Source of the DNA: Candidatus Woesearchaeota archaeon
GTDB lineage: Archaea > Nanobdellota > Nanobdellia > Woesearchaeales > JAGLXL01
Direction: 5' to 3'
DNA length: 64,000 nt
Assembly: GCA_030640025.1 (NCBI GenBank)
Contig: DAOWKC010000002.1
Span: 68,029-132,028 of the forward strand
This document shows, piece by piece, positions 6,335 to 43,645 of the stretch (the stretch's first letter is position 1; every line of letters starts with the position of its first letter). Both the position numbers and the translations under genes were made by a program. The notes below the pieces were generated by a model. That model was not told the DNA's origin. It did not search any database and was given only the letters and a program-made list of their open reading frames with translations.

Positions 6335-6672
6335 GGTAGGGGCGGTTTTAGCTGACGGTAAACATTTGTTTGCTGAGGAAAGTCCACCCACCAAAAGTTG
6401 AGTTTTTTTATGAAAGCTTAACTGGAAGAAAGTCACTCTCGGAAGAGAGAGGGAGAAATCCCTGGCTCTGGCTCAGAAACGACACGTCCATGAACGAGGA
6501 TGAAAATGGCGAAGGTCTCTGAAAAGGGACTGAGTTAACCCGTAGACGTTGTTCATGGGAACGATGAAACGGCGAAACCCTGACTGGTGCAAGTCATTAA
6601 GACGCTTAGTAGAATGCTAAATGGCCTGTCTGATTACAGAGGCTAACAAAAGGTGGCTTATCCCGCCCTACC
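6335..6672 (+). ncRNA. rnpB: RNase P RNA
   Basis: Universal CR-I motif GAGGAAAGTCC at 6375-6385 and the conserved ACAAAAGGTGGCTTATCCCGCCC 3' region. 5' GGTAGGGGCGG pairs with 3' CCGCCCTACC to form the P1 helix. Lies in a non-coding gap. Confidence 0.75.
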
Positions 6673-9302: not shown

Positions 9303-9421
9303 GGCGGTAGTCGTATAAAATTACGGAAAAAAAGTCCGTAAGGTACATCGGTTAGTATTCAAGCCTGTGGTCATTTATTGGCAGCCAGCTTGAGGACGGG
9401 GTTCGATTCCCCGCTACCGCC
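9303..9421 (+). tRNA. tRNA-His (anticodon GUG) with two predicted introns: ~30 nt near positions 9/10 (9313-9342) and 16 nt at the canonical 37/38 site (9371-9386)
   Basis: Acceptor GCGGTAG (9304-9310) pairs with CTACCGC (9414-9420). T-arm is CGGGG-TTCGATT-CCCCG. D-arm is GTAC-ATCGGTTA-GTAT with A14, G18G19 and A21. Anticodon stem CAAGC/GCTTG pairs perfectly, with loop CU-GUG-GA after removing a 16-nt insert. G-1 (9303) and C73 are His identity elements. An oligo-T run follows. Confidence 0.55.
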
Positions 9422-9427
9422 CTTTTT

Positions 9428-9811
9428 TTATAATCGAGAACTTCCGTTTAATTTTTTTTTAACAAATTCTTTTATTTTGTGATCCTCTTCAGTATGATCA
9501 CTATAAGGCAAACCCAAATGCCAATTAAAATGAGGTTCGTCGCCTACAGAAAGAAATTCATCTTTAATCCTTCCATGTACTACACACCTTAATCGGTAAA
9601 CATCATAAAATCCACAGTATCCCACTTCTATTCTTGTTGCACGACTAGTAAATCCAATAGCTGTATCAAAATGAGCACCAATAGAAGAACTATTTGGGTG
9701 GTTATCTCTCTCATAACTAGGATGAACTTTGAACCACTTTTCTACTCTATTTGATAATTCCACAGTGTCCCTTAATTGTACAGTTCCTATTGTTTGTTTC
9801 ATTTTAATCAA
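9428..9811 (-). CDS. hypothetical protein (possible Vsr/DUF559-like endonuclease fold, very uncertain)
   Basis: 127-aa ORF immediately downstream of the tRNA on the opposite strand. Only weak resemblance of YRLRCVVHG...DE to Vsr/DUF559 motifs. Confidence 0.3.
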   Translation of the reverse strand: MIKMKQTIGTVQLRDTVELSNRVEKWFKVHPSYERDNHPNSSSIGAHFDTAIGFTSRATRIEVGYCGFYDVYRLRCVVHGRIKDEFLSVGDEPHFNWHLGLPYSDHTEEDHKIKEFVKKKLNGSSRL

Positions 9812-38854: not shown

Positions 38855-39772
38855 ATGAAAAAAATTATTTTAGGTTTGGTTTTGATTGTGGTTTTATTTT
38901 TAGCTGGCTGTGGTGATGATGATGAAGGAGGCGCCCAAGTAGGTTCTGTTTTTGAAGGCGGTTCTCAAGGCATAGTGGCAAGTTTTGAGCCTTTTGGGAT
39001 CCAAGAAGAAGGTGTTTATGTAATTTATGACACTGAGAATTTTCCAATTGAAGTGAATGTCAAAAATAAAGGGGAAGAAGATATTGCAGCAGGTGATTTG
39101 GTGGTTAAGTTGAAAGGGATTAACTTAAATGATTTTGAAAACATTCCAGCAGCAATAAAAAGTAATGAAAGAATGATTGAAAAGGTCTCTGAATTTAATA
39201 GAGAAGGTGGTGAAGAGATTATTGATTTTACTCCGCTTTCTGAAGCTGCTAAGTACAAGCACTCAATCACTGGATTTTATCAGCCAGATATTTTTGCAAC
39301 AATTGAGTACAAGTATAAAACAAGAGTAATTGTGCCTAAGGTTTGTTTTAAAGAAGATTTAAATGATGAAAGTGTTTGTGATGTTAAGGAGAGCAAGGAT
39401 GTTTTTGTTTCTGGCGCACCAATTTTAGTCAAGTCAGTAAAAGAAGATTCAGCAGGCAGAGGTGTGATGATCTTGACATTTGAAATTGAAAATGCTGGCG
39501 GCGGCAAAGTAACTAAAGTTGGTGAAGCATTTGACTTGAGATATGGACAGCTGGCCTTTAACATGAAAACTGACCCGGGAATGTGGGAATGCAGAAGTGC
39601 AGGCAAAATAAATGAAGCAAGATTAATTGACGGGAAAGCAACAGTGATTTGTAGATTAAAAGAAGCGCTGCCAGCTGGAACTTTGTATACCAAGCAAATT
39701 GAGTTGGAATTAAGTTATGTTTATCGATCAGTAATGTCAGAAAGTATAAGAATTAAGGAGAGTTTGAGTTAA
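38855..39772 (+). CDS. lipoprotein, family paralog 3 (LAGC lipobox)
   Basis: MKKIILGLVLIVVLFLAGC. Weaker versions of the shared motifs (REGGEE, SGAPILV). Confidence 0.5.
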   Translation: MKKIILGLVLIVVLFLAGCGDDDEGGAQVGSVFEGGSQGIVASFEPFGIQEEGVYVIYDTENFPIEVNVKNKGEEDIAAGDLVVKLKGINLNDFENIPAAIKSNERMIEKVSEFNREGGEEIIDFTPLSEAAKYKHSITGFYQPDIFATIEYKYKTRVIVPKVCFKEDLNDESVCDVKESKDVFVSGAPILVKSVKEDSAGRGVMILTFEIENAGGGKVTKVGEAFDLRYGQLAFNMKTDPGMWECRSAGKINEARLIDGKATVICRLKEALPAGTLYTKQIELELSYVYRSVMSESIRIKESLS

Positions 39773-42638
39773 GAACAAAAGCAAGGAAAGCTTCGAGTTG
39801 GACAAATTCGTCTGAGCCTTCCACCATTCTAAATTCTATTTCACCACAGTGAGTTATAAGCTTGACTTTTAATTGGTCTGGTATTTCGAGATTCCAGATT
39901 TCTCTTTGGATTTGTTTGATGATGTCGAGGCCAGAGAGGCCGTGCTGGAGCATAGTGTCAATGAGTTTGTTTCGTGAAGGGATAAATTGTTGATTTAAAG
40001 CGAGGTTAAGGACTTCTTTGATTTCTTTGGGCTTGGCAGCAGAAACCATAGAATAAATGTCCTCTGGGGCGATAGACTCTCCTTTTGGTTTTACAGCAAA
40101 GCAGCTTTGCATAATATTTGTTAATTTCCGACAATCTCCATTAGAAACTTCAATTAATGCTTTTTTGACGTGAGGAAGAACAGACTGTTGAAATTCTCCC
40201 CCTTCTTCCTTGGCAATTTTTTCAATCACTTTAGAAATATCTTCTTCTTTAAGCGGTTTAAAATGAAAAACTGCACAACGAGATTGAATAGGATCGATTA
40301 TTTTGGATGAGTAATTACAATTATGAGAAACGAAACCATTGGTGATAAAATTATGGTCTTTTTGGCAGGTTATGTCCATAACCAATTCTTCATCAACTTC
40401 TTTTATTTCATCGATTTCATTGATGAAGAGGGTGCTGTTGAATTTATAATTTTTGATCCACTCATCAAAAATGATAAATTTACTTCTAGGAAGATGGACA
40501 TCTTTTCCTTTTCTTTGGTTGGCAACAAAATCAAGGGTAACATCATATTCTTTAGCAATCACCCCGATTGATTTGCCAGAATTTGTTTGAGTAAGTATTA
40601 ATTTTGATTTTTCCTTCCAAGAATTGATTAAATGGTATTTATGACGCAAATATTCTGCTGATAACTTTGCTAATCTTATTTTGTATGTTTCATAAGCATA
40701 TCCTATTTGAGAAAAAAACTTGAAGAGGTTATGATTATTGGGTTTTATTACTAAGCCAAAAGTTAATACTGGAATATTGTCTCTTTTTCTTATTTCTTTT
40801 CTGTCGATGATTTTGATGTAAGTTTCTACTTCGAACTCTTCAAACAGATTAGAAAGTTCTTGATAAAAATTAATCATTGATATTTTGAGATAAATTGATT
40901 TATTTTGTCTAAGTAGAATTGCCTCAAAATTCATTTTTTTACAATGGGGTTTATCAGCATCACAACCAAACAAAGCTCTTAAGAATTCTCGTTTGACGAA
41001 TTTTGTGCCTTTTTTAATAAACTCCGGTACAGTATAGGGAGTTATTGTTTTATCTCCTTTTGGGATACCAAAAAATTGCAAAAGTAATGACAAAGGTCTG
41101 GAATCAAGCGTAAACGAGGTTGTTGTTCCTACAAATTCTCTTCCTCGGATTATATTTTTTAAAGTGACTGACTTAATTTTTGAGTAATTGGAGTGCTTTA
41201 AAATGTCTAAGTCTTTCATTACTTCTTTTAATGCTTCTCGATTACCAGAAAAATGAAGCCTGATGCTATTACGGACGAGATGGCCATCTCCTAACATAAA
41301 ACCACAGATTCTTGTCAAAGCTCCAATTTTTTCAATATCATTGAAAGTTATATCTAACAATTCTTTTCTTTTAAGTTCGCCAAGAACTCTGTCAATTCGG
41401 CCTCTAAAAATTGTTGAATCAATTGATTCCCTAACAGCTGAATAGGATATTTTGAGATTAAATTCTTTTTCTATGATTTTTCTGATATCCATATCATTTC
41501 TGAGAGTTATTGGCTCTGAATTAGTGATTAAAAAAGAGTGGGTTTTTTTGTTGATAATTCTTTTGATATAACCTTTTTTCACTAAAGAAAGAAGGAGGTA
41601 ATTTGTTCCCATACGAGTGAGACATAATTTTTCTTGTAATTTTTTTCTTGTGATTTGGTGGTTTTGTTTGATTAAGTTATAGAGTTCAAACTCTCTTTCT
41701 GTCAGCCCCTTATCTTCTTTTATTATCTTTCTTAATTCTTCTATTTTTTGAATGATTTTTTCTTTTTCAGTTGATTTAAGTCTTCTAAACCTTGAAGCCG
41801 TTTCAATTGTTTCTAAACCATCCTGCTCTTCCGTGGTAGAAAGGAATTTTATAAATTTATCAAGATCAATAATTTTGTTAGAATTGTCTTCAACTGGTGT
41901 TCCTTCAAGATGTGGATGGATCAATAAGTTATCTTCTTTTGTTATCTTACCTGCCTCTTTCCAACCATCGATTGTCAGAAGTTGGTGGTCGTCTGTGACT
42001 TTAATCTTCTTTCCAGTCATGGTAGTTATTTCAAGTACTTTTTTGCCAATTAATCTAGGGGGGAGTTTAACGGCAGCTAAAACAAGGTCTTTTTTAGTTG
42101 AATCTCTATTTTTTGAAATATTTTGGATGTGTATTTGCCCGGTTTTATGTTCATATTGATCAATAAATTTTTCTATCATAATCTCTCTTTCTTGTGGTAA
42201 AAGAATTTTTGTATCAGGAGTAACACAGGCCAGAACAAAACGGCAGGTTTTGGTGTAATTTTCCATAGTTCTTCTTAGAGCCTGCTGAGCTTCTTTGGTT
42301 AAGGCGTCTGATTCGTCCAAGTAAATGATTTTGAAAGGGACGTCTCCAATGGCTTTGGTGCGGGCAAAGTCTTTGACTTTGTTTCTGACTATATCGATGC
42401 CGCGTTCGTCAGAAGCATTTAATTCAAGAAAGTTTTGATGCCAGCTACCTTGGAAAAGCTGCTTGGCAATGACTAAGGCTAAGGAGGTTTTACCAACTCC
42501 AGCCGGTCCTGAGAAAAGAAGATGAGGCATATTTTTTTGCTGGACAAAGGCTTCTATTCGTTTAACTATTTCATTCTGGCCATAAACATCTGAGAAATTT
42601 TCAGGCCTGTACTTTTCAGTCCACATTGCAGGGGTCAT
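39753..42638 (-). CDS. rfcS: replication factor C small subunit containing one 636-aa intein
   Basis: Exteins total 325 aa with Walker A GPAGVGKTS, DEAD-like YLDESD and SRC motif (IQSRCAVFHF). The insertion splits the sequence between RFVLA and CNYSSKII. Confidence 0.9.
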   Translation of the reverse strand: MTPAMWTEKYRPENFSDVYGQNEIVKRIEAFVQQKNMPHLLFSGPAGVGKTSLALVIAKQLFQGSWHQNFLELNASDERGIDIVRNKVKDFARTKAIGDVPFKIIYLDESDALTKEAQQALRRTMENYTKTCRFVLACVTPDTKILLPQEREIMIEKFIDQYEHKTGQIHIQNISKNRDSTKKDLVLAAVKLPPRLIGKKVLEITTMTGKKIKVTDDHQLLTIDGWKEAGKITKEDNLLIHPHLEGTPVEDNSNKIIDLDKFIKFLSTTEEQDGLETIETASRFRRLKSTEKEKIIQKIEELRKIIKEDKGLTEREFELYNLIKQNHQITRKKLQEKLCLTRMGTNYLLLSLVKKGYIKRIINKKTHSFLITNSEPITLRNDMDIRKIIEKEFNLKISYSAVRESIDSTIFRGRIDRVLGELKRKELLDITFNDIEKIGALTRICGFMLGDGHLVRNSIRLHFSGNREALKEVMKDLDILKHSNYSKIKSVTLKNIIRGREFVGTTTSFTLDSRPLSLLLQFFGIPKGDKTITPYTVPEFIKKGTKFVKREFLRALFGCDADKPHCKKMNFEAILLRQNKSIYLKISMINFYQELSNLFEEFEVETYIKIIDRKEIRKRDNIPVLTFGLVIKPNNHNLFKFFSQIGYAYETYKIRLAKLSAEYLRHKYHLINSWKEKSKLILTQTNSGKSIGVIAKEYDVTLDFVANQRKGKDVHLPRSKFIIFDEWIKNYKFNSTLFINEIDEIKEVDEELVMDITCQKDHNFITNGFVSHNCNYSSKIIDPIQSRCAVFHFKPLKEEDISKVIEKIAKEEGGEFQQSVLPHVKKALIEVSNGDCRKLTNIMQSCFAVKPKGESIAPEDIYSMVSAAKPKEIKEVLNLALNQQFIPSRNKLIDTMLQHGLSGLDIIKQIQREIWNLEIPDQLKVKLITHCGEIEFRMVEGSDEFVQLEAFLAFVLNSNSP
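40320..42227 (-). mobile_element. intein (Cys...His-Asn, +1 Cys) with LAGLIDADG homing endonuclease domain, inside rfcS
   Basis: Begins CVTPDTKILL directly after extein RFVLA. Ends GFVSHN followed by C. Contains a LAGLIDADG-type block ICGFMLGDGHL. Confidence 0.8.
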
Positions 42639-43048: not shown

Positions 43049-43645
43049 TTGTTATTTGACTATATGGCAAAGAAAGCAAAGAAAAAGGCTAAGAAAGTTG
43101 AGAAGAAAGTGATAAAGAAGAAAGTTAAGGGAGTTTTAGATAGAGACAGAATTATTACTGAAGACAGTGATGCGGCTCGCGAGTTTTATGCTCAAAGCAG
43201 GTTTGGCAGTATTTTAGAAGGAGAAGGAAAAGTACAGCTTTCTTTACTTGAAGGACTTTTTTTGTTTGAAGCTGGAAAGCTTGAGATTAAATCTAGTAAT
43301 GGTAGGAAATTGTCTTATGAAAGTTTTTTGAAGAAAGCTAAAAAAGTGGCGCCTAATTTTTGGGTCAGGTATTGTGTTTTTAAGGATATTAGGAATCGTG
43401 GGTATATTATTAAGACAGCTTTGAAGTTTGGAGCTGATTTTAGGGTTTATGATCGGGGGGTTAAGCCAGGTGAAGATCATGCCAGGTGGGTGATTTATCC
43501 GGTGCATGAAAGCGAGTATTTGACTTGGTATGAGTTTGCAGCTAAGAACAGGGTGGCCCATAGTACTCGTAAAAGGTTATTAATTGGAATTGTTGATGAT
43601 GAAGGCGACGTGACCTATTACGAAATTAGATGGATGCGACCATAA
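43049..43645 (+). CDS. endA: tRNA-splicing endonuclease (EndA) with K-rich N-terminal extension
   Basis: Catalytic C-terminal domain motifs KFGADFRVYDRG...DHARWVIYPV (Tyr/His/Lys triad region). Confidence 0.75.
   Translation: MLFDYMAKKAKKKAKKVEKKVIKKKVKGVLDRDRIITEDSDAAREFYAQSRFGSILEGEGKVQLSLLEGLFLFEAGKLEIKSSNGRKLSYESFLKKAKKVAPNFWVRYCVFKDIRNRGYIIKTALKFGADFRVYDRGVKPGEDHARWVIYPVHESEYLTWYEFAAKNRVAHSTRKRLLIGIVDDEGDVTYYEIRWMRP

Follow-up and report, generated by a model that had tools for sequence, protein, structure and literature searches.

The 64,000-nucleotide stretch of DNA analysed here (hereafter the window) carries, on its forward strand at 9303–9421, a tRNA-His(GUG) gene that is split by two inserts, and this gene is real. 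Its first intron, 9319–9348, belongs to the D-loop; it starts six bases further downstream than the initial annotation had it and is non-canonical in position only. Its second is at the canonical position 37/38. From the sequence we judge it very probable that this is a functional gene of the single-copy type in a DPANN archaeon, with a precursor of ~120 nt from which two introns are spliced by protein.

Identity and detection of the tRNA-His gene

The window is archaeal and AT-rich (~36% GC), its GC skew is positive in every 4-kb bin from 1 to 64000 (0.14 to 0.43, with no sign change), and the host is labelled ‘Nanoarchaeota archaeon’ at NCBI, its relatives carrying the label Woesearchaeota. 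ARAGORN found no tRNA in the intact 64 kb, with or without its intron option, and at a lowered threshold it returned spurious matches alone, with introns hundreds of nt long. Rfam at the gathering score found RNase P RNA only and no tRNA in the whole window, and in E-value mode no tRNA beyond the one at this locus, where the score of the Rfam tRNA model is 24.6 bits (gathering score 29), from a local match (9341–9416) that lacks the acceptor stem and skips 19 nt of the anticodon loop. A hand-written scan for a T-arm followed by an acceptor strand, with its complement needed upstream, gave a single candidate, at 9397, with GCGGTAG 93 nt upstream, and no other tRNA candidate on either strand of the window.

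When the two inserts proposed by the initial annotation were deleted, ARAGORN called a 74 nt tRNA-His(gtg) with an 8-bp acceptor stem that includes G-1:C73, and so the identity proposed there, a tRNA-His(GUG) with G-1, C73 and the anticodon stem CAAGC/GCUUG, was borne out. Of its two introns, the need to remove two inserts to obtain a cloverleaf and the position of one of them at 37/38 both held, and the site given for the other did not (below). Table 1 lists the revised coordinates. The strand CAAGC of exon 2 is the 5′ side of the anticodon stem, and exon 3 supplies its 3′ side (GCUUG) and the 3′ side of the acceptor stem (CUACCGC); with 9371–9386 removed, the 5-bp stem carries a 7-nt loop, C32 U33 G34 U35 G36 G37 A38. 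G9303 pairs with C9421 as G-1:C73, a pair of bases that every complete orthologue also has, and the gene encodes no CCA.

Table 1. Features of the tRNA-His locus and of the processing genes in the window. BHB, bulge-helix-bulge; BHB 1 is the motif at intron 1; a vertical stroke in the text, or a slash after ‘predicted cut’ here, marks where cleavage is predicted.
Feature	Positions	Strand	Remarks
Archaeal RNase P RNA	6335–6672	+	Rfam RF00373, 144.7 bits; presumed 5′ maturation leaving G-1
TATA-box-like element TTTATAA	9271–9277	+	Putative promoter; ends 26 nt upstream of G-1
tRNA-His(GUG) gene, G-1 to C73	9303–9421	+	Precursor 119 nt, spliced 73 nt
Exon 1	9303–9318	+	G-1, acceptor GCGGUAG, U8 C9, D-stem 5′ strand GUAU, A14 A15
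Exon strand of helix H, BHB 1	9313–9316	+	GUAU, tRNA positions 10–13; pairs with GUAC 9343–9346
5′ bulge, BHB 1	9317–9319	+	AA then A; predicted cut 9318/9319
Intron 1, D-loop, between A15 and C16	9319–9348	+	30 nt; BHB, deletion scan, shuffles, MAFFT gap
Hairpin h′, BHB 1	9321–9341	+	UUACGGA/UCCGUAA (9321–9327/9335–9341), loop AAAAAAG
Intron strand of H and 3′ bulge, BHB 1	9343–9349	+	GUAC (9343–9346) and AU then C (9347–9349); predicted cut 9348/9349
Exon 2	9349–9370	+	C16 G18 G19 U20 U20a A21, D-stem 3′ strand GUAU, U26, CAAGC, C32 U33 G34 U35 G36 G37
Intron 2, position 37/38 (G37 to A38)	9371–9386	+	16 nt; strict BHB
Exon 3	9387–9421	+	A38, GCUUG, variable loop AGGA, T arm CGGGG-UUCGAUU-CCCCG, CUACCGC, C73
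Run of seven T	9423–9429	+	Likely archaeal transcription stop
EndA, tRNA-splicing endonuclease	43064–43645	+	193 aa from ATG; Pfam and PDB matches

The sequence of the locus is identical in an ENA metagenome scaffold (scaffold_3 of ERZ23498665), in the Logan assembly of SRR13892600 and in NCBI MAG GCA_023132895.1 (contig JAGLXL010000002.1). At least two of these assemblies are from one sample; since all three are identical, an assembly error is unlikely. Upstream, a block AAA(G/A)TTTATAAGT is kept at equal distance in the syntenic orthologues described below, and a T-run also follows the tRNA gene in orthologues. The RNase P RNA gene lies 2.6 kb upstream of the tRNA-His gene.

Bulge-helix-bulge motifs at the two introns

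For intron 1, an exhaustive search over cut sites gave a 3-4-3 BHB motif only with cuts after 9318 and 9348, where it is near-perfect. The cleavage geometry assumed, in which the 4-nt exon strand of helix H is followed by two bulge nucleotides and then by the cut, fits all ten canonical 37/38 introns that we compared (those of nine orthologues and of the window), nine of them with four out of four H pairs. At intron 1 helix H is likewise complete (G9313-C9346, U9314-A9345, A9315-U9344 and U9316-G9343). The flanking helix h joins 9308–9312 to 9350–9354 in 5 bp, of which C9-G18 and U8-G19, nearest the bulge, are free of competition from the acceptor stem and the other three compete with it. The hairpin that the initial annotation had seen inside the first insert is real (7 bp, TTACGGA/TCCGTAA in the DNA); it forms h′, with pair probabilities of 0.81–0.97, and is preceded by an A9320-G9342 mismatch. 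The strict hBHBh′ form, with both flanking helices, is thus present at intron 1 with its revised boundaries as well as at intron 2, and the relaxed hBH, HBh′ or BHL form, which calls for a broad-specificity EndA, is not what intron 1 has, both of its 3-nt bulges being intact. When intron 1 was shuffled with the cuts held fixed, H = 4 was obtained in 3% of shuffles; a shuffle that combined H = 4 with an h′ of 7 bp or more occurred in 1 of 100,000. The revised cuts predict a mature D arm GUAU-AACGGUUA-GUAU, which is the D arm of the closest orthologues, and a spliced product that reads ...GUCGUAUAACGGUUAG... over the exon junction.

The 16-nt insert at 37/38 is exactly where the initial annotation had it, and the BHB search gives a strict motif there. 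Its helix H is formed by C32-U35, CUGU (9365–9368), with GCAG (9381–9384) in 4 bp; the bulges are GG|U (G36 G37|U) and CC|A (CC|A38), 3 nt each; h is 7 bp long, being extended by the anticodon stem, and h′ is 2 bp long. Only 0.18% of shuffles match this motif (P = 0.0018). Intron 2 is homologous to the 13–15 nt introns of orthologues, visibly so when aligned with its 13-nt counterpart in the nearest species representatives (UCAUUUAUUGGCAGCC / AC---UAUUGGUAGAA).

Processing would then proceed as follows. Transcription from the TATA-box promoter would give the precursor, in which GUAC, at the intron 1 3′ end, would take the place of the mature partner in pairing with the D-stem 5′ strand G10-U13, so that h (9308–9312/9350–9354), H (9313–9316/9343–9346) and h′ (9321–9327/9335–9341) make up a helix-bulge-helix-bulge-helix unit, and at intron 2 its GCAG would pair likewise with C32-U35. 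EndA (43064–43645) would cut within the 3-nt bulges, after 9318, 9348, 9370 and 9386, and an RtcB-type ligase would join the three exons; RNase P would trim the leader, leaving the encoded G-1, and CCA would be added. The precursor has a minimum free energy (MFE) of -45.5 kcal/mol versus -42.8 kcal/mol with both H helices enforced, which places the BHB conformer 2.7 kcal/mol above the MFE. The ensemble pair probability is ~0.26 for H of intron 1 and ~0.03 for H of intron 2, and helix H does not appear in the MFE folds of the precursor and of mini-substrates. As an argument against the BHB this is weak, because the undisputed canonical intron 2 fails in the same way, and folding thus decides neither for nor against the motif.

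Orthologues, origin of intron 1 and alternative readings

When GTDB species representatives were scanned for 3′ halves of tRNA-His, 31 loci were obtained, nearly all of them in Woesearchaeota, Pacearchaeota or Nanoarchaeota MAGs. Six of the 31 have a 37/38 intron (13–23 nt), and none of the 30 that reach the 5′ half has an insert in that half (the remaining locus, L058, is cut by the locus end). No D-loop intron was present in any of ~45 orthologous tRNA-His genes, that of the closest relative included, and a metagenome scan for tRNA-His with an insert of 15–45 nt at the same D-loop site gave no matches. A first scan of viral contigs with a loose 3′-half pattern gave 40 loci; the pattern was too loose and was then tightened.

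The gene order orf167-orf155-mem170-tRNA-His-L3 operon (mem170 being a 170-aa membrane protein) is kept in L068, L075 and L082, with L3 protein 82% identical, and also in six loci that were fetched through homologues of orf155 (L084, 91% identical in orf155; L088, 85%; L086 and L087, 83%; L089 and L090, 81%). In the window the ribosomal-protein operon begins with L3 at 10116, and the space between it and the tRNA-His gene is filled by a 127-aa ORF (9428–9811, minus strand) that matches nothing significantly in Pfam and is missing from L068, L075 and L082, where the spacer is ~200 nt; in the loci found later the spacer is ~300–400 nt. This ORF may be an insertion beside the tRNA gene. The L084 locus (ENA ZHEN22-1 scaffold_107046, 1903–1990 and downstream) has a 150-aa plus-strand ORF just after tRNA-His, at the site where the ORF in the window is on the opposite strand, and the region 3′ of tRNA-His appears to vary between strains.

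Exon 1 is identical to the first 16 nt of the orthologues L068, L075, L082, L084 and L086–L088, and the tRNA 5′ half of the syntenic loci, GGCGGTAGTCGTATAACGGTTAGTAT, is that of the revised spliced product. The tRNA starts GGCGGTAGTCGTATAACGG(T/C)TAGTAT in seven of the nine syntenic loci, and in six of these seven the 26-nt start is identical to the revised spliced product, L088 being one base off (GGCTAG); the D-loop of L089 reads AAUGGUUA. Relative to orthologues the window copy shows compensatory changes at 31:39 (C-G vs A-T) and 49:65 (C-G vs G-C), which imply that the tRNA is under selection, and these changes, together with the kept TTTATAA box and T-run, indicate from sequence that the window copy is a functional gene.

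In L084, the closest relative found, the sole intron is one of 15 nt at 37/38. Since the orthologues have no D-loop intron, the most parsimonious reading is that this species-level lineage acquired intron 1 recently, in a gene that already had the older intron at 37/38. A positional orthologue in a sister lineage (L089:3544–3647 and L090:1374–1477, in JGI Ga0248667_100036 and Ga0248668_10105) has no 37/38 intron, which was lost or was never present there, and carries instead a T-arm insert of 29–31 nt near 53/54 with a strong BHB-like fold. In one register this insert has H = 4, h = 4 and h′ = 9, and H = 3 when a 7-nt T-loop is restored; the best BHB register leaves two extra A in the T-loop. 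Orthologous tRNA-His genes in close relatives thus have introns at three positions (15/16 + 37/38; 37/38 only; ~53/54 only). Searches for further copies of intron 1, in the window with up to 3 mismatches and in ~690 kb of related loci with blastn-short, gave none. A 116-nt tRNA-like gene in L079 (Ga0114923_10107747), with an acceptor stem as in tRNA-His, resembled a second case of a 5′ intron; ARAGORN calls it Ile(UAU) only after two deletions (~30 nt near positions 5–10 and a 15-nt insert at 31/32), and no BHB was found for its 5′ insert.

Could the gene instead be a decaying pseudogene, inactivated by the 30-nt insert, with another tRNA-His at work elsewhere? Among the orthologues examined, only this genome has the D-loop insert, and the EndA lacks the loops that are known to aid D-loop introns (PMC3241643), as such a reading would have it. 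A random insert, however, would not be expected to give a 3-4-3 BHB in precisely the register that restores the ancestral sequence (P ~1e-5), all exon positions are compatible with a cloverleaf and include compensatory changes, promoter and terminator are intact, and the locus is the conserved syntenic site of tRNA-His. Small DPANN genomes, moreover, usually have one gene per isoacceptor, and this locus is probably the cell's only tRNA-His. We therefore regard a pseudogene as quite improbable, and a functional gene with two spliced introns as the better reading.

There remains the register of intron 1. The initial annotation had placed it at 9313–9342, directly after U8/N9, and because GTA is repeated this interval can slide by up to 3 nt, to 9316–9345, so that the intron would lie after U8/N9 or inside the D-stem 5′ strand (positions 9/10 to 12/13). 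Such an intron would give GUAC-AUCGGUUA-GUAU as the mature D arm and ...GUCGUACAUCGGUUAG... as the junction; ARAGORN accepts this cloverleaf, and C13-G22 is a better pair than U13-G22. No BHB could be drawn in any of the four equivalent registers, even leniently (3/4 H pairs and a 2-bp flanking helix). The annotation had made the absence of such a motif at either junction its test, and this, applied to 9313–9342, would wrongly reject intron 1: the strict BHB is present at 37/38 and at 9319–9348. In a deletion scan (starts 9304–9361, lengths 0–45 nt), for which an HMM was trained on 22 orthologues without introns, the closest ones being excluded, 9319–9348 was best with 67.2 bits, followed by 9318–9347 (66.1 bits), 9313–9342 (64.9 bits, 2.3 below the best) and 9320–9347 (60.4 bits); because the margins are small (1–2 bits to the runners-up) the scan is supportive and not decisive alone. 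The register 9318–9347, with the product ...GUAUAUCGG..., has no BHB, and 9320–9347 (H = 3/4, h = 6, h′ = 7) gives a 10-nt D-loop that is absent from all orthologues; both were rejected. MAFFT alignment with the syntenic orthologues puts a 30-nt gap at exactly 9319–9348 and not where the annotation had the insert. The earlier register also predicts CAU at 13–15, which occurs in 0 of the ~45 orthologues, as against the UAA of the revised product, which is found in the nine closest syntenic orthologues (GUAU-AAYGGYUA; L090 has U at 19). An intron at 9313–9342, or at one of its equivalents, is hence extremely unlikely; a spliced junction reading ...GUACAUCGG... would be at odds with the revised boundaries. 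It is just as hard to credit that the 30-nt insert is retained as an extra hairpin arm that enlarges the D-loop while the 37/38 intron alone is spliced, since, although its stable 7-bp hairpin dominates (pair probability >0.8) and the nearest-neighbour (NN) model does not favour helix H, its bulges, 4-bp spacer and register match an EndA substrate exactly, the extra arm would move G18 and G19 away from their T-loop partners, and we know of no tRNA with a 38-nt D-loop.

The splicing endonuclease and known multi-intron tRNAs

The ORF at 43049–43645, proposed by the initial annotation to be the splicing endonuclease, has turned out to be just that: it has both EndA domains in Pfam (tRNA_int_endo_N, PF02778, and tRNA_int_endo, PF01974) and matches 3iey_A (2.5e-37) and 1a79 (7.4e-37) in the PDB, the best structural matches being M. 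jannaschii EndA and the alpha subunit from N. equitans. Although the mechanical ORF opens with TTG at 43049, the protein probably starts at ATG 43064; NCBI has an identical protein of 193 aa under the name tRNA-intron lyase [Nanoarchaeota archaeon]. A Tyr/His/Lys triad is aligned, whose residues we take to be the catalytic ones by way of M. jannaschii EndA. Nearby on the minus strand (39753–42638) is a gene for the replication factor C (RFC) small subunit, 961 aa long, in which a large insert with a LAGLIDADG-like GFMLGDGHL, ending ...VSHNC, parts the P-loop region from the C-terminal RFC part; from its sequence this insert looks like an intein.

EndA aligns end to end with M. jannaschii EndA with three 1-residue gaps only, and this alignment shows no insertion of the size of the Crenarchaea-specific loop (CSL). 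Also absent is the 6-residue Lys/Arg-rich insertion that N. equitans has between the catalytic Tyr and His. All 120 of the closest homologues have the M. jannaschii-like 9-residue Tyr-His spacing, and none has the N. equitans-type insertion, which would correspond to the ‘L3’ of the literature (PMC3239211, PMC5829648). EndA of the window thus has none of the published loops that widen specificity (CSL/L1, ASL/L2 and L3). A tblastn search of the 64-kb window found no EndA paralogue or second subunit. At its N-terminus (43064–43129) EndA has 22 residues rich in lysine, MAKKAKKKAKKVEKKVIKKKVK, which precede the domain whose alignment begins at residue 1 of 1a79, the M. jannaschii EndA chain, and a lysine-rich N-terminal tail of 17–90 aa is present in 120 of the 120 closest homologues (P0121–P0240).

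In A. pernix and M. kandleri, introns of the D-loop undergo splicing in vivo (PMC3241643, PMC5829648). Loop-less EndAs cut such introns poorly in vitro, for which steric hindrance by the folded tRNA core has been blamed (PMC3241643, PMC5829648), and the loop-less EndA of A. fulgidus hardly cut a strict BHB D-loop intron in vitro (PMC3241643). In the precursor considered here the D-stem 5′ strand is tied up in the BHB conformer, so that the tRNA core cannot fold while the motif exists, and the unfolded core may relieve this hindrance of EndA. That the clade handles D-loop, T-arm and 37/38 introns with a loop-less EndA whose lysine-rich tail (MAKKAKKKAKK...) constitutes a fourth, independent route to tolerance of introns at non-canonical positions is a speculative and rather doubtful proposal.

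Multi-intron tRNAs have been described in Thermoproteales, M. kandleri and ARMAN and are suspected in other DPANN (PMC4033280, PMC3239211, PMC5829648), and the present gene belongs to this known class. The M. kandleri tRNA-Glu(UUC), with a canonical intron and a relaxed HBh′ D-loop intron (2018, PMC5829648), is one of its two closest precedents and resembles it in having two introns, at 37/38 and in the D-loop, and a host EndA without CSL or ASL loops. It differs in amino-acid identity and in phylum, in its relaxed D-loop motif where the window has both bulges in a 3-4-3 arrangement, and in its EndA, an (alpha-beta)2 heterotetramer where the window encodes a single alpha-type protein like the M. 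jannaschii alpha4 enzyme. Aeropyrum pernix pre-tRNA-Thr2(UGU), the other close precedent, also has a strict BHB intron in its D-loop, which is cut in vitro by APE-EndA (Hirata et al. 2011, PMC3241643) and whose removal needs no guide RNA or extra factor; that case is crenarchaeal, with a single intron, and cleavage there depends on the Crenarchaea-specific loop (K44), whereas the EndA of the window has no insertion of such size. The multi-intron tRNAs of Thermoproteales (Sugahara et al. 2008, Fujishima et al. 2010, reviewed in PMC4033280) likewise have more than one intron in a tRNA, at non-canonical positions, with lineage-specific introns gained rapidly among close relatives, but these are TACK archaea with an (alpha-beta)2 EndA that has the CSL, and in them different tRNAs carry similar introns, which points to transposition, whereas we found no second copy of intron 1 in the window or in the ~690 kb of related loci. 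ARMAN-2 (Micrarchaeota, DPANN), with tRNA introns at 53/54 and 59/60 (Fujishima et al. 2011, PMC3239211), is alike in being a DPANN host with non-canonical intron positions, and the T-arm intron of L089/L090 is near 53/54 as well; its EndA is a three-unit epsilon2 enzyme with the ASL loop, where that of the window is a single 193-aa unit. What sets the present gene apart from these precedents is its strict 3-4-3 D-loop motif, its host with a loop-less, M. jannaschii-like EndA and its demonstrably recent origin.

Since ARAGORN and, at the gathering threshold, Rfam miss the gene, a genome annotated in this way would appear to lack tRNA-His. Kaneta et al. suspected disrupted, hidden tRNA genes behind the incomplete tRNA sets of DPANN archaea (PMC5829648), and the tRNA-His described here is a gene of that kind. 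The corrected boundaries matter for the design of probes and for models of the mature tRNA. The recent gain of the D-loop intron and the three intron positions in sister lineages suggest that turnover of the Thermoproteales type also takes place in a DPANN clade with a loop-less EndA, in mild conflict with the in vitro data on D-loop introns, and the syntenic series of presence and absence could serve to date the gain of a strict BHB intron and to study how such a gain comes about.
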